A DNA stretch of 64,000 nucleotides, from sequence record PQ327946.1, one strand, 5' to 3'. Made by a program: the position numbers and the translations under genes. The stretch comes from a phage. This document shows, piece after piece, positions 10,015 through 64,000 of this stretch. Positions within the stretch are counted from its first letter, which is position 1, and each line of letters opens with the position of its first letter. Under the pieces are notes generated by a model. That model was not told the DNA's origin. It did not search any database and saw only the letters and a program-made list of their open reading frames with translations.

Positions 10015-10571
10015 TCCAATGCTAATTTTTTAAATTGTTTTTGTTCTTTCACATTTTTTGTAACTTCTTTGAGAAACTCATCAGTGACCATGGCCTTCAG
10101 TTCTTTAAGGACTATTGGCAACTTGTTATTTTTTTCAAGGAGCCGCTTATACTCAGTAGCATCATTCATGTTGATTGTGTAATGTTTCATCAACAGTTTG
10201 ATAACTAGTAACTCTGAAGTGTCTTCGACTAGTTTAGCCCATTTAGAGAATCGACGACCACGTGGAATTGCCGCCATCATATAGTTGAAGTGCGCTTCAT
10301 CACTTAATTCAGAACCGACTAAGTTCATCATGTAAACGGCTGGCATACATTCTGGAAACTGGGATAATGAGTTCTCAACCATAAATTTTGAGTAGTCGAC
10401 CTGAGCAATTGACATAGATTTCTTTTCATTAATAGCATTAATGATTTTAAAGAATTCATTCTCAGGTTTTTCTTTAAACATATCAGCACATTTTTGAATC
10501 GCATCAGCGTCATTAGACTTCCATGCAATTTGGTGCTCGTTAAGCCGGACGTCATCATCGAATAAGTTCAT
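10008..10571 (-). CDS. 62: Clamp loader small subunit
   Basis: 187 aa, same length as T4 gp62; between 44 and regA. Confidence 0.85.
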
Positions 10572-10572
10572 A

Positions 10573-11535
10573 TTATTTCCAAGTCAGTTCGCAGGTCAGT
10601 TGAAGAAGCATATACATAACATGTAATTCAATATTACTTGCTAATCCATGAAACTTATTGTTTTCGCCTGCAATTTCATAAAGCGAAATAATACTTTTAC
10701 CAGGTGCAACTTGGTCATAACATTCTGAAACTAATTTATCGATGAACCATGAATAATCTGCGGCATATTTTGGAGCTAATGCACGAAGCTGTTTGATATC
10801 TTTGTTCTTCATTGCTTCGATAACATCAGAGACTGTGCCACGGTCATTAGTTACGATAGACAAAATACCCGCATCAAGAACACCTTTAGACGAGTACTGG
10901 TCTAATTGACCAATTGTGCGACGAAAGTCTGGGAAGTTCTTTTTAACCAGAGCTGCAACAACTTTCATATCAGCGATTTCGATATTTTCATTCTTACAGA
11001 TTTCAACCATACGATGAATCATTTTCTTCATCATCGAGATTTTATCTTCTTCGGTTGGACGCCCGAATTCGATAACTCGACAACGACTACGTAATGGTTC
11101 AATAATTCCATCGATGTTGTTAGCAGTAATAATAATAGAACAGTTACTAGAGAATTCTTCCATGAATGTACGAAGGTGACGTTGTGATTCGGCGAGGCCA
11201 CTACGGTCAAATTCATCGATAACAATAACTTTCGGCTTGCCTTCCATTGAGACTGAACGAGCGAATGCGGTTAACGGTCCGCGTACAAAATCAATCTTAC
11301 AATCAGAACCGTTGACGAACATCATTTCAGCGTTGATATCATTACACAATGCTTTTGCTACGGTTGTTTTACCTGTACCAGGAGAAGGAGAGTGCAAAAT
11401 AATATGAGGAAGTTTTCCTTTAGATACTAAAGACTTGAATGTTTCATGGTCATACGCTGGCAGAATACATTCGTCAATGGAAGAAGGACGATATTTCTGT
11501 TCTAGAATGTGTTCTTTGTGATTGATAGTAATCAT
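10573..11535 (-). CDS. 44: Clamp loader ATPase subunit
   Basis: 320 aa; Walker A GTGKTT and Walker B VIVIDEFD. Confidence 0.9.
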
Positions 11536-20632: not shown

Positions 20633-20797
20633 TTTATTTTCCTCTATAGTAGATGGTTTAATCTTAACACATCTATTGAGGATGTAAACTGTTTTATGAA
20701 AATATTTTCGATTTGAGAGGGGCACAAGGAGATAGTGAAGTGAAGATTCCAATGGATTATATTAGAAATGAGATAAAGAAGACCAGGCGGCACCTGG

Positions 20798-21091
20798 TCA
20801 ATCTTCTATGATATCAGAGTCATATCCTAATGAAATCAAGGACTTTTTAAACTCTGCGATATTCCTTTGTTTCTTATCATTTAAAAATATGACAGGATAA
20901 CGAATATTAAGTGAAGTGAATCCTGCACGTTTAGCAAGAGATACGATTAAAGGACGGTCATATTCAATCTTACCATTATTAGTGAGGACTTTATAAAATG
21001 TATAAGGAGCATTGAGCTCCTTTAAAAGTTTTGTAACAGTATAACATCCCGGACAACGTCCTACTTCTTCAGGGATGCCATAGATTTCAAT
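20798..21091 (-). CDS. nrdH: Glutaredoxin-like NrdH-type redoxin (start codon unresolved)
   Basis: CPGCYTV CxxC motif after KIEIYG; no in-frame ATG near expected N-terminus. Confidence 0.5.
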   Translation of the reverse strand: MEIYGIPEEVGRCPGCYTVTKLLKELNAPYTFYKVLTNNGKIEYDRPLIVSLAKRAGFTSLNIRYPVIFLNDKKQRNIAEFKKSLISLGYDSDIIED

Positions 21092-21404
21092 CTTGTTCTT
21101 TAAGTTCGAGTTTTGTTCCACGAGAAATAATTCCTTGGTAAGCCCAATATGGCGGGTTAACAGAATCATCACCGGAGTTTTCTTCAGGAAAATAAACCTG
21201 GATAACAAATCCGGATTCATCAAAGGTAAAATAAACCGTAGGCAGTTCACCTAACAATTCGGCACGAGCATTAATTTCTTCGAGATCTCGTTCACGTCCA
21301 GCCCAAAAACTAGGATTTAGATCACATTCGTAAAAATAATAGTCATTACCGAACATATCAAACCCCTTCCAACTCTCTACCACATACTGCTCAAAACTAA
21401 TCAT
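21087..21404 (-). CDS. Hypothetical acidic protein
   Basis: 105 aa ORF. Confidence 0.45.
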   Translation of the reverse strand: MISFEQYVVESWKGFDMFGNDYYFYECDLNPSFWAGRERDLEEINARAELLGELPTVYFTFDESGFVIQVYFPEENSGDDSVNPPYWAYQGIISRGTKLELKEQD

Positions 21405-21406
21405 AA

Positions 21407-21622
21407 TTAAGCCTTTTTATCAAGAACAGAATTCAGTTTATTAGTAATTTTGTCCAAACGTTCATTGAATTCGCTGGAGGATAATCCCTTTTCCGGAGAA
21501 ATTAAACTAATCAAGAAAAATACAACAGTAAAAGGAATAAGAAAAATAGCTCCAACTGCCATAAACAAAAAGAACGTTACAGTTGTAAGAAAATCAGCTA
21601 AACCTTTACGAAATTTATACAT
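21407..21622 (-). CDS. Small membrane protein
   Basis: 71 aa with a long hydrophobic helix. Confidence 0.45.
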   Translation of the reverse strand: MYKFRKGLADFLTTVTFFLFMAVGAIFLIPFTVVFFLISLISPEKGLSSSEFNERLDKITNKLNSVLDKKA

Positions 21623-21732
21623 ATTTACCCTTAATTAACTAAGCATTGATAAACACCAAACTATACTGCGAATAAAATTCTGGACCAAAACGAAAAATCA
21701 TATCATTTATAGTATCCATAATGTAATTCAAT

Positions 21733-22203
21733 TTAATCATGTTTCCACACCCCATCGGTATTTGACCAAAGTCGCTGATTATCTGATCCTCGCCACATCT
21801 TTTTAGTCGGAAGATTTTTCTCATACTTCCCATCAATAATAACATCAACATATTTAAGCATTTCTAGTTGTTTAATATCTTCAAACTTATATCCTGTCCA
21901 CAACCAAATGCTTTTATTGGGATAAAGATTTTTTACTGTTTGAGCAATGCGATGAATAACATCTCGGTTATCAGGATAGAGAGGATCTCCTCCGGTTATA
22001 GTTAATCCTTCTATATAATCATTATTCAAACATTCAATCAATTGTTCTAGTGTTTCACCAGTGAATGGAATACCATTTCTAGCGTTCCATGTTGATTTAT
22101 TATAACACCCTTCGCATTTATGCAAACAACCTGTAACGAAAAGAACGACCCTGCAACCAGGGCCATTCACAAAATCGCAAGGATAAAATCTATCATAATT
22201 CAT
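21733..22203 (-). CDS. nrdG: Anaerobic ribonucleotide reductase activating protein (radical SAM)
   Basis: 156 aa; CxxxCxxC motif GCLHKCEGC. Confidence 0.9.
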   Translation of the reverse strand: MNYDRFYPCDFVNGPGCRVVLFVTGCLHKCEGCYNKSTWNARNGIPFTGETLEQLIECLNNDYIEGLTITGGDPLYPDNRDVIHRIAQTVKNLYPNKSIWLWTGYKFEDIKQLEMLKYVDVIIDGKYEKNLPTKKMWRGSDNQRLWSNTDGVWKHD

Positions 22204-24017
22204 TGGTGTTTAACCCTATGCATGATTTCTTTATTTTTACCGAGATTAAATCCGCGTTCGTTCGGATTTCCCAAATAACCACATGTTCTTCTTATGGTGT
22301 TCATCTTTTTAGGATCACTTTCTCCACAAACTGAACAAACAAATCCGTTTTCAGTAGGAGTCATTTCATGAGTACTTCCACATGTAAAACATTTATCTAC
22401 TGGCATATTAACACCAAAATAATCTAAATGTTGTGCAGCATAATCCCAGACAGCCTCAAGACCTTTTAAGTTATTTTTCATATCTGGAAGTTCAACATAA
22501 GAAATGTGACCGCCTGTTGCAATGAAATGATATGGGGCTTCGCGAGAAATCTTTTCAAATGGAGTAATATTTTCTTCTACTGAAACGTGGAAACTGTTAG
22601 TGTACCAGCCTTTATCGGTAACATCTTTTACACTTCCATATTTCTCAGTATCAAGTTTACAGAAGCGATAGCACAGGTTTTCAGCAGGAGTAGAATACAG
22701 GCTAAAAGCAAAACCGGTTCTTTCAGTCCACTGCTTAAGACGAGCATTCATTTTAGTTAAAATTTCCTGTCCAATATCACGTCCGACAAGAATATTCAAT
22801 TCGTGAATACCAATGTATCCTAGGGACACTGAACTTCTGCCGTTTTTAAATAACTCAATTATATCGTCATCAGGTTTAAGACGAACCCCGAATGCACCTT
22901 CTTGGTAAAGAATAGGAGCAACAGTAGCTTTAACTCCTTTTAAGGAACTAATTCTGCACATCAATGCTTCAAAACATAAATCCATTCGTTCATTGAATAA
23001 TTCAACAAATTTCTGTTCATTGAACTGTGTTCCAATATAAGAATCTAACGCAATACGAGGAAGATTCAGTGTTACAACACCAAGATTATTACGTCCATCA
23101 AGAATTTCATTACCAGTCGAATCTTTCCATACGCTCAAGAAACTACGACAGCCCATTGGAGAAACAGGAACAGATGAACCAGTGATAGCTTTATTATTCT
23201 TAACTGAAATAATATCAGGATACATTCTTTTGCTTGCACACTCTAGAGCAAGCTGCTTAATATCATAATTCGGATCGTCTTTATAAAGATTAACACCTTC
23301 TTCAACGAACATAACAAGTTTAGGGAAAATAGGAGTTATCCCATCGCGACCAAGACCTTTAATACGATTTTTCAGAATTGCTTTCTGAATCATTCGTTCA
23401 GTCCAGTCAGTTCCAGTACCAAATGTAATTGTCACAAAAGGCGTTTGTCCGTTTGAACTAAAGAGAGTATTTACTTCATATTCATAAGCTTGGAATGCAT
23501 CGTATACGTCTTTTTCTGTTTTAGATTGGGCATAATTCAGCGCATCAGCGATTTGCCATTTTTCTGCATCTTCAATATGTTTTGCGTAGGTGCGTTTAAC
23601 ATAAGGAGAAAGGACTTTATCTACATTCGCAAATGTAGTTCCACCGTATTGATGGGAAGCAACCTGCGCAGTAATTTGTGCCATAATTGCAGTAGCAACA
23701 CCAATCGATTTAGGCGTTTCAATTTGAGCATTGCCTAATTTAAATCCATTCTCAAGCATCCCCTTTAAATCGACTAAACAGCAATTAGTAAATGGAAGAG
23801 CAGGAGAATAATCAATATCATGCATGTGGATAATTCCACTTTCGTGTGCTTTCATAATAAAAGACGGGACCATATTTTTGGCAATGTGCTTAGACACAAT
23901 ACCAGCCATAAGGTCCCGTTGAGTTGGAAAAACACGAGAATCTTTATTAGCATTCTCGTTCAAAAGATCTTTATTAGTTTTATGAATTAATCCTTCAATT
24001 TCTTTTTCAATTTTCAT
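22200..24017 (-). CDS. nrdD: Anaerobic ribonucleoside-triphosphate reductase
   Basis: 605 aa; C-terminal zinc-ribbon cysteines and glycyl radical motif RTCGYLG; uninterrupted. Confidence 0.93.
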   Translation of the reverse strand: MKIEKEIEGLIHKTNKDLLNENANKDSRVFPTQRDLMAGIVSKHIAKNMVPSFIMKAHESGIIHMHDIDYSPALPFTNCCLVDLKGMLENGFKLGNAQIETPKSIGVATAIMAQITAQVASHQYGGTTFANVDKVLSPYVKRTYAKHIEDAEKWQIADALNYAQSKTEKDVYDAFQAYEYEVNTLFSSNGQTPFVTITFGTGTDWTERMIQKAILKNRIKGLGRDGITPIFPKLVMFVEEGVNLYKDDPNYDIKQLALECASKRMYPDIISVKNNKAITGSSVPVSPMGCRSFLSVWKDSTGNEILDGRNNLGVVTLNLPRIALDSYIGTQFNEQKFVELFNERMDLCFEALMCRISSLKGVKATVAPILYQEGAFGVRLKPDDDIIELFKNGRSSVSLGYIGIHELNILVGRDIGQEILTKMNARLKQWTERTGFAFSLYSTPAENLCYRFCKLDTEKYGSVKDVTDKGWYTNSFHVSVEENITPFEKISREAPYHFIATGGHISYVELPDMKNNLKGLEAVWDYAAQHLDYFGVNMPVDKCFTCGSTHEMTPTENGFVCSVCGESDPKKMNTIRRTCGYLGNPNERGFNLGKNKEIMHRVKHQ

Positions 24018-41866: not shown

Positions 41867-42351
41867 ATATACGCTTTCCAAGTTCCTGTTTTAAATGTTG
41901 AGATTACGCGTTTCGCGCGATTAGGTGTCTGACGATACCATTTAGATTGTGCTAGATTTACTGCCGCTTCGTCCCAACGTTTCTGTTGAAGCATACGAAG
42001 AGAATTAGTAAAACCGGCAACGCCTGCTACACCCATTTGGAAGACCATATTGACCAATGCACATCGACGAACTGCATCTAAAGAATCATACACCGGTTTA
42101 AGTTTAGCATTACCCAAGATTCCACGAACGGCTTTATCAACGTCTTCATTAAATAGCTTTTCAGCCTCATCAAGGGTAATTGTACCGTTGCATTTACGTC
42201 CGATCATTCTGTCAAGTTCAGCTTTAGCTACGGTTAAAGACGGGTTCTTTGTTACTAAATGACCTATGCCAATCGTCCAAAAGCCTTCAGTGTCTTTGTA
42301 TAAAGTCAGTCTAAGACCTTCGTCATTACGAAGCATTTCAAATATATTCAT
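41863..42351 (-). CDS. e: Lysozyme (endolysin)
   Basis: 162 aa from ATG at 42351; [15 protein letters not shown] matches T4 lysozyme. Confidence 0.93.
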
Positions 42352-42352
42352 A

Positions 42353-42378
42353 ATACCTCCCACGTTTATAGGAGGTAT
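42353..42378 (-). promoter_or_regulatory. SD-sequestering hairpin with late-promoter-like loop upstream of gene e
   Basis: ATACCTCC/GGAGGTAT arms; loop contains TATAAACG on minus strand; SD GGAGG in 3' arm. Confidence 0.5.
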
Positions 42379-42385
42379 TTATTAC

Positions 42386-42844
42386 TTATAGGATGGTAGT
42401 GAGCACCTTATATAATGATTTGCCCATTACATATTCCCATTGAGAAGGTTTAATTAAAGCGAATGCATCAAATTCAGGAATCTGTCGTCCGTCTGGGAAT
42501 GTATGATAGGAATTACAAACACTGTTTCTGAATTGCTCGTGCTCTACAGGGATGGTATATAGGAACAGATGAATATTCTTATTGTCTGAGTAATGATGTT
42601 CACCTAGGTCTTTCAGGAAGGCAGGGTCATATTGTGTAAACCCAGTTTCTTCTTCGCATTCACGAATAGCGGCTTCGATAGGAGATTCACCGGGCTCGAC
42701 ACGACCTTTAGGAATATCCCACCGATGAGCTAAAGAACCTTTAGGACGAGAACCAGTTACACGCCCCATGAATAACTCTTTATCTTTTGTCATGAAGATA
42801 ATACCGGCTGATAGTTCTTTCACTTTATTTTTCTTACTCATCAT
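42386..42844 (-). CDS. nudE: Nudix hydrolase
   Basis: 152 aa; Nudix box GRVEPGESPIEAAIRECEEETG. Confidence 0.8.
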   Translation of the reverse strand: MMSKKNKVKELSAGIIFMTKDKELFMGRVTGSRPKGSLAHRWDIPKGRVEPGESPIEAAIRECEEETGFTQYDPAFLKDLGEHHYSDNKNIHLFLYTIPVEHEQFRNSVCNSYHTFPDGRQIPEFDAFALIKPSQWEYVMGKSLYKVLTTIL

Positions 42845-61292: not shown

Positions 61293-64000
61293 CAGTAAAA
61301 GCGCCAGCAGTCACAAGTCTCAGAATATCCAAGTTGTCCGCTAACCAAGTTCAAATACGCTGGGATGACGTTGGTGCTAATTTCTACTATTTCGTAGAAA
61401 TCGCTGAGACTAAAACGGCAGACGGGGAAATAATTCCCCCTGCCAGCTACAGATGGACAAATTTAGGATATACTCCTAATAGCAACTGGTTCGAAAGTAG
61501 CTTAGACCCATTAACTTCTTATATTATTCGTGTATCAACTGCCGCCGAAGGCTTCGAGAGATCTGATTGGGTATATACTGAAATATTTGAATCATTTCAG
61601 ACTAACGCGTATACATTTCAACATATGATTGAAATGCAATTGGCTAACACTTTTATTAGAGAAAAATTTACAAATAACAACATGGCTTATGTCGATTTTA
61701 ATAACGACACTATAATGGCAGCTCTAATGAATGAATCGTTCCAATTTAGCCCTGCTTATGCGGATATTTCATCTATTAAAAATTTCATTATTGGCGAAAA
61801 TGAGTATCATGAAATTCAAGGTTCGATTCAACAGGTGTGTCATGATATAAACCGTGTTTATTTGATGGAATCTGAAGGAATTCTTTATTTGTTTGAACGG
61901 TATCAGCCTGTGGTTAAAGTCTCTAATGATAAGGGACAAACCTGGAAATCGGTTAAATTGTTTAATGACCGTGTAGGGTACCCTGTATCAAGAACAGTGT
62001 ATTACCAGACAGATTACACCACGTATGTTCTTGGATATGATAAATTATTTTACGGCCGTAAATCAACCGACATTCGTTGGTCTGCCGATGATGTGAGATT
62101 TAGTTCTCAAGATATAACATTTGCTAAAATTGGTGACCAATTAAATTTAGGATTTGATGTAGAAATATTTGGTAACTACGCATCATTACCTGCTAACGTA
62201 TCACGTATTGCAGAAGCTATTGTTTGCAACGACGATTATGTATACGTTGCTGCTCGAGATAAAGTTCGTTTTATTAAAACTAGTAATGCCCCTATTGATT
62301 CAGACCCGTTATCTCCGACATATTCCGAACGTTTGTTTGAACCAGAAACATTTAACATCACAGGTAACCCTAAGGCCGTTTGCTATAAAATGGATTCTGT
62401 TGGTGGTAAAATATTTGCACTGATTATCGGTGAAGTTGTTAATCTTAATGACGACCCGAGGACCACTCCTATTGTTGATTCTGTTGATAAGGGTGTTTAC
62501 GTTCTAGACCATGATGCTGGCACATTTAAACGTGTGTTTGGTAATACTGAAGAAGAACGCCGTCGTATTGAACCTGGGTACACCAGTATGTCTACTGATG
62601 GTGTTGAGTTATCTATTTCATCTAGTAATTTTAAATTTTTAGAATCAGATATTGTTGATGACCCAAAAACACAAGCCAAGTACGGTTTAATCGGTGCTGT
62701 TAAATACGAGTATCCTCGCGAATGGTTGGCTGATAAACATTATCATATGATGTCATTTATTTCAACCGAAGACTCTCAATGGGAATCGTTCACTCCTCAA
62801 CCGATGGAATACTATGCTGAGCCATTCTTTAGTTATTCTAGAAAGTCTGGTACTCGTTGTTGGATTAATAACTCAGACAAGGCCGTTGTAATTTATTCTG
62901 ATTTACTTTACACTAAGGTTATTGAGAGTCATCCACTTAGTTCTCCAGACCGTGAAGTTCATGAATATTGGAAGGACGGTGACTGTACAATAGTGATGCC
63001 TAACGTAGATTTCACCGGATTTAAAAAATATGCATCCGGCATGATTTTCTATAAAGCATCAGGTGAGATTATTTCTTATTATGATTTTAGTTACCGTGTT
63101 AGAGATAATGTTTCTATAATTTGGAAGCCTACTAATGTATTCTTAACAGCATCGTTACAAAACCAAGAAAAAGATACCACATGGTCTCCTGTGGAAGAGA
63201 ATGGTATTGCGGACCCAGATTTACGACCATTGCTCACTACAATGATGCCGGAGTCTTATCTTTTAGATAATACAAACTTCGAAGCATTCTGTGAGGCTTA
63301 TATTCAGTATCTTTCTGACGGCTATGGGACCCATTATAACAACCTTTTAAATCTTATTAAAAATCAATATCCGCGAGAAGAACATGCGTGGGAATATTTA
63401 TGGTCTGAGATTTATAAACGAAACATTTACTTAAACGCCGAAAAACGCGATTTAGTGTCTCGTTTCTTTGAATCAAGAAGTTATGACTTCTATTCAACTA
63501 AAGGAACTGAAGCATCATATAAATTCTTGTTTAAAGTGCTTTATAATGAAGATGTTGAAATTGAAATTGAATCTAGTTCCGGGACCGAATATGATATCAT
63601 CATTGAATCTGATTCGTTGACAGAAGATTTGGTCGGACAAACCATATACACCGCTACAGGACGTTGTAATGTAACGTATATCGAGAGAAGTTACTCTAAA
63701 GGTAAATTACAATGGGCTGTAACAATTCACAACCTCTTAGGTCGTTTAATCCAAGGACAGGAAGTTAAAGCTGAAAGACTCCCTGGTTTTGAAGGTGAAA
63801 TTGTTCGTGGTATTAAAGGTAAAGAGCTTTCTCAGAACAACATCGATTACATAAATCGTGGTAGAGCATACTACGTAATGAAGATTAAATCTAAACTTCC
63901 ATCATCTCGTTGGAAATCAGACGTATTACGTTTTGTTCATCCGGTTGGATTTGGATTTATCGCAATTACCCTTCTCACAATGTTTATTAACACCGGATTA
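61289..64000 (+). CDS. 7: Baseplate wedge protein, 5' part; continues beyond window end
   Basis: ATG at 61289 overlapping gene 6 stop (ATGA); frame appears open to 64000. Confidence 0.7.
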   Translation, partial: MTVKAPAVTSLRISKLSANQVQIRWDDVGANFYYFVEIAETKTADGEIIPPASYRWTNLGYTPNSNWFESSLDPLTSYIIRVSTAAEGFERSDWVYTEIFESFQTNAYTFQHMIEMQLANTFIREKFTNNNMAYVDFNNDTIMAALMNESFQFSPAYADISSIKNFIIGENEYHEIQGSIQQVCHDINRVYLMESEGILYLFERYQPVVKVSNDKGQTWKSVKLFNDRVGYPVSRTVYYQTDYTTYVLGYDKLFYGRKSTDIRWSADDVRFSSQDITFAKIGDQLNLGFDVEIFGNYASLPANVSRIAEAIVCNDDYVYVAARDKVRFIKTSNAPIDSDPLSPTYSERLFEPETFNITGNPKAVCYKMDSVGGKIFALIIGEVVNLNDDPRTTPIVDSVDKGVYVLDHDAGTFKRVFGNTEEERRRIEPGYTSMSTDGVELSISSSNFKFLESDIVDDPKTQAKYGLIGAVKYEYPREWLADKHYHMMSFISTEDSQWESFTPQPMEYYAEPFFSYSRKSGTRCWINNSDKAVVIYSDLLYTKVIESHPLSSPDREVHEYWKDGDCTIVMPNVDFTGFKKYASGMIFYKASGEIISYYDFSYRVRDNVSIIWKPTNVFLTASLQNQEKDTTWSPVEENGIADPDLRPLLTTMMPESYLLDNTNFEAFCEAYIQYLSDGYGTHYNNLLNLIKNQYPREEHAWEYLWSEIYKRNIYLNAEKRDLVSRFFESRSYDFYSTKGTEASYKFLFKVLYNEDVEIEIESSSGTEYDIIIESDSLTEDLVGQTIYTATGRCNVTYIERSYSKGKLQWAVTIHNLLGRLIQGQEVKAERLPGFEGEIVRGIKGKELSQNNIDYINRGRAYYVMKIKSKLPSSRWKSDVLRFVHPVGFGFIAITLLTMFINTGL

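Follow-up and report, generated by a model that had tools for sequence, protein, structure and literature searches.

The window analyzed here is a stretch of 64,000 nucleotides of phage DNA (PQ327946.1) that, judged from its sequence, derives from a Mosigvirus, i.e., an RB69/JS09-like T-even phage. A 1.1-kb region of it is 96 to 98.6% identical to many Mosigvirus genomes (ST0, JS09, HX01, and others), with phage ST0 at 98.6%, and 683 phage records match this region altogether. On the minus strand lies a gene cluster headed by nrdD and nrdG (together positions 21733 to 24017). The former (22200 to 24017), which specifies the anaerobic class III ribonucleotide reductase, is recognized from its ORF and the annotations of relatives; the latter (21733 to 22203), which specifies the activase of that reductase, is recognized from its matches to the Pfam domains Fer4_12 (E 2.2e-48) and Radical_SAM and likewise from the annotations of relatives. 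Farther along the same strand are a homologue of T4 gene 55.8 (21407 to 21622), coding for a small predicted membrane protein of 71 amino acids (phrog_1930, E 6.4e-36; annotated in T4 and RB69), and a 105-aa gene (21087 to 21404) whose product matches the phrog_2749 profile at E 1.8e-49, with residues 1 to 100 aligning with profile positions 1 to 99 of 100. The phrog_2749 gene is homologous to RB69ORF082c and is annotated in relatives. It is absent from T4 itself, where 55.8 is the gene immediately upstream of nrdH and no phrog_2749 member stands between the two. The cluster closes with nrdH (20798 to 21121), a coding sequence for 107 amino acids plus a TGA stop, identified from its ORF, from homology to T4 NrdH, and from the 324-nt coding sequences of ST0 and HX01. 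The order of the window's ORFs, from nrdD, nrdG, and 55.8 through nrdH to the 55.6-55.1 genes and gene 55, is that of the T4, RB69, ST0, and HX01 maps.

Several smaller features accompany these genes. An ORF of about 37 aa (21627 to 21752, minus strand) lies between the 55.8 homologue and nrdG, whose end it overlaps; ST0, HX01, and other relatives have it annotated as hypothetical, and the corresponding 117-nt gap of T4 is unannotated. At the other end of the cluster, a scan for terminators found an intrinsic-terminator-like hairpin, GACCAGGTGCCGCCTGGTC, followed by TTCTTT (20781 to 20799, minus strand), which begins within the nrdH stop codon. T4 nrdH has a comparable hairpin after its stop, and several related phages carry an annotated “terminator” feature at the position equivalent to 20781 to 20799. 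The same scan found a second terminator-like hairpin, AAGGAGCTCAATGCTCCTT, at 21004 to 21022 (minus strand), within the KELNAP codons of nrdH. This one has a perfect 7-bp stem that includes AAGGAG, occurs as the identical sequence in T4 nrdH, and is probably just coding sequence. A promoter scan returned 6 sites against 7.2 in shuffled sequences, none of them convincing just upstream of nrdH.

The nrdH product is a clear orthologue of T4 NrdH, with 85% identity over 100 of 102 residues (BLASTP, E 1e-66). Its redox-active dithiol, CPGC (Cys23 to Cys26), is specified by codons at 21044 to 21055 on the minus strand; both cysteines are invariant in an alignment of 16 sequences and align with the CVYC of T4 glutaredoxin (1AAZ). 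Among the domain models, phrog_22, a “thioredoxin domain” family, matches at E 1e-15, and the Pfam model Glutaredoxin (PF00462) scores 19.9 bits, below its gathering score of 22.9. At E 1.3e-10, a profile built from 16 homologues recovered the NrdC product, T4 glutaredoxin (1AAZ and 1ABA), in an alignment of 85 residues that takes in the entire fold from its first strand onward; other glutaredoxins matched weakly. Hence, going by sequence and profile, the protein is best described as a thioredoxin-fold, CPGC-bearing, glutaredoxin-like redoxin and a paralogue of T4 NrdC. The alignment with 1AAZ begins at chain residue 2, opposite IEIYG, so that the nine residues MEQNSNLKN lie outside the fold and constitute a clade-specific extension.

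Comparison with the two known T4 redoxins and with the bacterial family that shares the name helps to place this protein. T4 NrdH (NP_049686.1, annotated “NrdH glutaredoxin,” formerly Y55B/55.7) and RB69 nrdH (NP_861771.1) are orthologues that occupy the same place after nrdD-nrdG and 55.8. Like the window, T4 has a GTG start, an AAGGAA Shine-Dalgarno sequence, a DIIED C terminus, and a terminator hairpin after the stop. The window, RB69, and other Mosigviruses differ from T4 in the extra phrog_2749 gene between 55.8 and nrdH; the window also differs from T4 in an N-terminal extension five residues longer (MEQNSNLKNK against MKQNK) and in an active site reading CPGCYTV rather than CPGCQSV. T4 NrdC (formerly “T4 thioredoxin”; 1AAZ, 1ABA, 1DE1, and 1DE2), the nearest solved structure by profile search, is likewise a small thioredoxin-fold CxxC protein from the same phage group, but it is a distant paralogue for which pairwise BLASTP is not significant. 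NrdC has CVYC, an ATG directly before its first strand, and serves the aerobic reductase, whereas NrdH has CPGC, about 15 extra C-terminal residues, and a gene beside those of the anaerobic reductase. With the bacterial NrdH-redoxins (E. coli NrdH of the class Ib nrdHIEF operon; TIGR02194), it shares a name and the general character of a small CxxC protein encoded next to reductase genes. The bacterial site is CVQC rather than CPGC, and the partner genes there are class Ib nrdIEF; the neighbors in the window are the class III genes nrdD and nrdG, not nrdI-nrdE-nrdF. An NCBIfam scan at E values up to 1 returned no match to TIGR02194; its single hit was TIGR02196 (the YruB family), whose 13.5 bits fall short of the cutoff, 88.55. 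The earlier note's description of the product as an NrdH-like redoxin is thus apt in the sense of a T4-type NrdH and fails in the sense of the bacterial NrdH-redoxin model: as far as the family models go, “NrdH” is here a T4 gene name and not a statement of NrdH-redoxin family membership. A biochemical role beside the anaerobic reductase may be read from the position of the gene and from the T4 annotation, where a note (annotation only) says that the product “has glutaredoxin activity.”

Read on the minus strand, the nrdH frame runs GTG (21121-21119) GAA CAA AAC TCG AAC TTA AAG AAC AAG ATT (21091-21089) GAA ATC TAT GGC and continues ATC CCT GAA GAA GTA GGA CGT TGT CCG GGA TGT up to the final GAA GAT TGA (20800-20798). 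Translation from the GTG gives the 107-aa product MEQNSNLKNKIEIYGIPEEVGRCPGCYTV...DIIED. Delimited mechanically, the same frame is open back to 21250, giving 150 aa with 43 open codons upstream of the GTG; in-frame ATGs occur at 21220 and 21169, both within the 105-aa upstream ORF, whose reading frame is a different one. The sequence thus bears out the earlier note's description of an ORF at 20798 to 21121 with a clear CPGC core and no nearby ATG, whose in-frame ATGs lie far upstream in sequence overlapping the preceding gene. That note had gone on to offer GTG 21121 and ATT 21091 as candidate starts and to conclude that initiation must be non-canonical, coupled, or frameshifted. That conclusion is not supported: GTG is a standard start codon in bacteria and phages, the one at 21121 is preceded by a typical Shine-Dalgarno sequence, and it corresponds to the curated start in T4 and RB69. 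We therefore propose, with a confidence of about 90%, that the nrdH of the window is translated by normal fMet initiation at GTG 21121 directed by the Shine-Dalgarno sequence AAGGA, a reading that rests on the comparative evidence set out below and on annotation.

The GTG at 21119 to 21121 (minus strand) is homologous to the annotated GTG starts of both T4 and RB69 nrdH. In T4 (NP_049686, 102 aa), the junction reads ...AAGGAATAGTT GTG AAA CAA AAT AAG ATT GAA GTC TAT GGA, giving MKQNKIEVYG, where the counterpart from the GTG of the window is MEQNSNLKNKIEIYGIPEEVGR; RB69 nrdH (NP_861771) is annotated from the GTG homologous to 21121. The GTG start of nrdH is therefore already known from the T4 and RB69 reference genomes, and no unusual decoding is needed. 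The AAGGA lies 10 nt upstream of the GTG (21132 to 21136, minus strand), inside the last codons of the phrog_2749 gene, and can form a duplex with the 3' end of 16S rRNA. The energy of that duplex is -5.4 kcal/mol, which is reached by 6.5% of random positions and equals the median for first-ATG starts of the window's minus-strand ORFs of 100 aa or longer (72 in number). A 10-nt spacer is at the long end of the usual range, yet within the working range; the corresponding distance is 9 nt in Dhakavirus and Gaprivervirus and 6 nt in T4. We also considered a hairpin bringing the Shine-Dalgarno sequence closer to the nrdH start or gating that start, but dropped it, since the junction RNA folds no better than shuffled sequence (minimum free energy of -16.7 kcal/mol, z +0.61). 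Literature searches turned up no experimental N terminus, initiation-site profiling, or proteomics on the NrdH start for any T-even phage, and we infer from comparison that ribosomes would actually initiate at GTG 21121.

The comparison of this junction in related phages, which the earlier note had suggested as a check, was made over 79 loci drawn from IMG/VR contigs and annotated phages of about 15 genera; for each, every in-frame start candidate was tabulated with its Shine-Dalgarno energy. The GTG and its Shine-Dalgarno sequence are kept in several genera: a GTG preceded by AAGGAA/AAGGAG or GAAGGTGG is found in Tequatrovirus, Mosigvirus, Gaprivervirus, Dhakavirus, the CIP9/MY742-like Enterobacter phages, and an unclassified contig (L009), so that the pair is retained even where the proteins are only about 60% identical. 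In T4-type loci, an in-frame stop stands four codons before the GTG (TAA GGA ATA GTT GTG), and in Gaprivervirus one stands two codons before it (TGA TTT CCT GTG). With these frames closed upstream, no ATG start is possible and GTG is the sole standard start codon; by the same token, the long open frame that the window has upstream of the GTG is neither conserved nor coding in that reading frame.

Elsewhere, the start codon itself varies at a fixed place. The Karamvirus KaAlpha (L026) has an ATG at the homologous codon (GAGG-9 nt-ATG GAA AAC TCA CAA CTA), at the same distance of 10 codons from the conserved Tyr as the GTG of MY742 (GTG GAA AAC CAA TCA CTA), and its N terminus, MENSQL, resembles the MENQSL of MY742. 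Similarly, a Dhaka-like contig (L062; IMGVR_UViG_2974741249_000001) has an ATG at the codon where other Dhakaviruses have GTG, in flanks that otherwise match the Dhakavirus GTG junction. On the sequence evidence, such exchange of GTG and ATG is the behavior of a real start codon. The nrdH of the Dhaka-like contig (L062:480-700), the nearest case of a GTG-to-ATG exchange, lacks about 33 internal codons, the CPGC site among them (GIPETVM|DDKPLIV), and is probably a decaying gene; with that segment lost, it is doubtful whether selection acts on its start codon. The CIP9/MY742-like clade has an additional in-frame ATG 6 codons upstream of the GTG, which one annotation used, and consequently the exact start is not unambiguous in every clade. 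In Winklervirus (L016, L041, and L042; e.g., Erwinia phage Vettismorki), about 25 nt upstream of KVEIYG, the nrdH frame opens only 9 codons before the conserved Tyr and holds no ATG or GTG, only two TTG codons, one of which is the annotated start. Weak start codons thus seem to recur in nrdH across genera. In Slopekvirus, Pseudotevenvirus, Bragavirus, Gelderlandvirus, Lazarusvirus, Cinqassovirus, and Klebsiella phages, an ATG stands directly before (K)IEIYG.

This last arrangement is a parallel for a start at ATT 21091, since several of these distant genera have true ATGA overlaps between the upstream gene and nrdH. The TGA of the phrog_2749 gene (21089-21087) overlaps the ATT in an ATGA-like arrangement, ATTGA, and one could envisage that ribosomes terminating there restart two bases back, yielding a 97-aa product beginning (M)EIYG. 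We consider such termination-reinitiation very unlikely. The ATT (21089 to 21091, minus strand) reads as a sense codon, Ile11, in the first beta strand (KIEIYG), aligns with residue 2 or 3 of T4 glutaredoxin 1AAZ, and is not a start codon. AAG ATT GAA is also present in T4 without any upstream gene ending there, and the overlap of ATT with a stop is accordingly a by-product of an ancestral coding sequence. Moreover, in L006 to L011 the upstream gene ends two codons earlier, at a TAA, which breaks the ATTGA; the counterpart of the ATT drifts to ATC (L045 and L070), to ATA in several genera, and to GTC, GTT, or TTT elsewhere; and its Shine-Dalgarno energy of -0.9 kcal/mol is at the background level. 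Initiation at the ATT would also leave the conserved GTG and Shine-Dalgarno sequence 30 nt upstream unexplained. Between the two candidates of the earlier note, then, it is the GTG that holds, as the T4 and RB69 start with a Shine-Dalgarno sequence, and the ATT that falls, as a drifting codon with none.

A start at the ATGs of 21220 or 21169, giving 140 or 123 aa, an overlap of about 100 nt or more, and an N-terminal extension MNPDLLSRFIFLKK..., is extremely improbable, even though the frame is open for 43 codons upstream of the GTG and GenBank record MZ234025 does annotate a 423-nt NrdH from the ATG equivalent to 21220. The stops two codons (Gaprivervirus) and four codons (T4) before the GTG close this frame in relatives; the stretch in question is coding in the other frame, as attested by the full-length phrog_2749 match (E 1.8e-49); the two ATGs have weak Shine-Dalgarno sites (-2.4 and -1.0 kcal/mol); and the glutaredoxin match starts only at residue 65 of the 150-aa ORF. 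A fault of sequencing or assembly that cost the gene a true ATG or displaced its frame, the circumstance that the earlier note had named as overturning its observation, can be regarded as excluded, its probability being negligible. Nothing favoring such an error was found at the nrdH junction. The 75-nt junction is present in 413 phage records at 90% identity or more, 30 independent ones among them being identical, and is therefore not a sequencing error; in addition, the 1.1-kb region agrees with ST0 at the level given above, and the T4 and RB69 reference sequences have the GTG as well.

Frameshifted expression was considered for the junction, where the nrdH frame is +1 relative to the phrog_2749 gene and the two overlap by 35 nt (21087 to 21121): a programmed +1 frameshift or transcriptional slippage within the overlap would produce a phrog_2749-NrdH fusion of about 200 aa. 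In Pectobacterium phage PM2, the two genes do form one ORF of 199 aa, annotated “nrdH glutaredoxin,” and the two-frame overlap is widely conserved, as a tblastn search of phage genomes gave 544 records with coverage of 80% or more of the PM2 fusion protein. Yet among the approximately 30 such records listed, all but the two entries of PM2 match in two pieces, that is, in two frames. The single frame of PM2 hangs on a run of seven A's (AGTGGAAAAAAATAT), where one extra A would again give a GTG-initiated nrdH; a homopolymer sequencing error is plausible there, with only one PM2 genome available. No known +1 slippery or stall signal occurs in the overlap itself (CGT GGA ACA AAA CTC GAA CTT AAA GAA CAA GAT TGA); from clade to clade, the candidate region does not keep its sequence and presents no common slippery motif, and T4 does without the phrog_2749 gene altogether. 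A frameshift or slippage of this kind is thus highly unlikely. A protein-database search with the PM2 fusion protein gave no matches and hence no independent check on fused forms. In the PM2 genome (NC_028940), the fusion occupies 41901 to 42500 (L052:207-806, equivalent to L079:608-1207), with the A7 run, at about 42,010 to 42,020, in AGTGGAAAAAAATATCCT; a run of eight would yield a separate, GTG-started nrdH. The PM2 ORF is either the outcome of a homopolymer sequencing error or a private gene fusion.

Initiation at GTG 21121 would place the start site in an overlapping context, with the GTG and its Shine-Dalgarno sequence embedded in the last 12 codons of the phrog_2749 gene, which ends 32 nt past the GTG. 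The substitutions around this junction were mapped in a 607-nt alignment of the two genes from six Mosigvirus- and Tequatrovirus-type haplotypes, a small sample. The alignment has 102 variable sites, and the longest gap between them spans alignment positions 256 to 309, i.e., window positions 21096 to 21149 (minus strand), an invariant 54-nt stretch that covers the Shine-Dalgarno sequence, the GTG, and most of the overlap. The next variable site, a C-to-T change at 21095, is synonymous in nrdH (AAC to AAT, Asn9) and turns a CAA of the phrog_2749 gene into TAA, which shortens that gene by two codons. T4-type loci, in which no gene overlaps this stretch, show a single difference in the N-terminal extension, AAT/AAC, that is likewise synonymous. 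Within the limits of this small sample, the substitutions fall as they would under translation of nrdH from the GTG and not the ATT.

The phrog_2749 gene itself has a patchy distribution. Absent in T4, it is present in Mosigvirus, Gaprivervirus, and Dhakavirus as well as in four contigs (L007, L008, L010, and L011) whose nrdH is of the T4 type (CPGCQSV) and in which the phrog_2749 gene ends at the TAA two codons earlier. Such a distribution is suggestive of mosaic recombination, the invariant junction being the site of a breakpoint.

Whichever gene lies upstream, the annotated nrdH start overlaps or abuts it, by 0 to 41 nt in the sampled annotated genera; a gap before nrdH in phage QL01 is due only to an annotation that starts nrdH at a later codon. 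This is typical T-even gene packing. Ordinary GTG-initiated overlapping or coupled genes of E. coli and T-even phages likewise have the Shine-Dalgarno sequence inside the 3' end of the preceding gene, and against them the 35-nt overlap and 10-nt spacer of the window are only somewhat longer, with nothing otherwise distinctive. Translational coupling of nrdH to its upstream gene is plausible on this analysis and possible, but it is not needed to account for a GTG start. Ribosomes traversing the phrog_2749 gene may help nrdH by keeping the site open or by re-initiating, and the weak start codon together with the long spacer may keep NrdH output modest. A more ambitious proposal, that the conserved 35-nt overlap is a translational-coupling device and the phrog_2749 protein a functional partner of NrdH, strikes us as doubtful. 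Were it true, NrdH synthesis would depend on upstream translation by virtue of weak start codons (GTG here, apparently TTG in Winklervirus), the length of the spacer, and the invariance of the 54-nt junction; the PM2 fusion would be genuine and would point to a complex, physical or functional, that acts with the anaerobic ribonucleotide reductase.

The value of placing the start lies mainly in annotation quality. Public records disagree on this gene, giving products of 107 aa, 140 aa, 199 aa (the PM2 fusion), and 90 aa (RB69); the comparative evidence fixes the start at the GTG, and the start codon as such offers no new biology. RefSeq entries for ST0 and HX01 give for nrdH the 324-nt coding sequence (107 aa) delimited here. 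In MZ234025 (L003), by comparison, NrdH (10399 to 10821) is stretched to 140 aa from the upstream ATG, and the phrog_2749 gene is omitted. In the HX01 record (L002, NC_018855), at 61432 to 61769, “glutaredoxin” is an erroneous label of the 55.8-like membrane protein, and a 37-aa ORF is wrongly entered as a class III reductase activating protein. Finally, compared with the window and other Mosigviruses, the reference nrdH of RB69 (NC_004928, 44089 to 44361) is short of 2 nt near codon 85 (L005:6090-6120; AAACAAAGATATTGCAGAG against AAACAAAGGAATATCGCAGAG), so that its annotated product is truncated to 90 aa from 107; the cause is either a frameshift peculiar to the strain or an error of the old sequencing.
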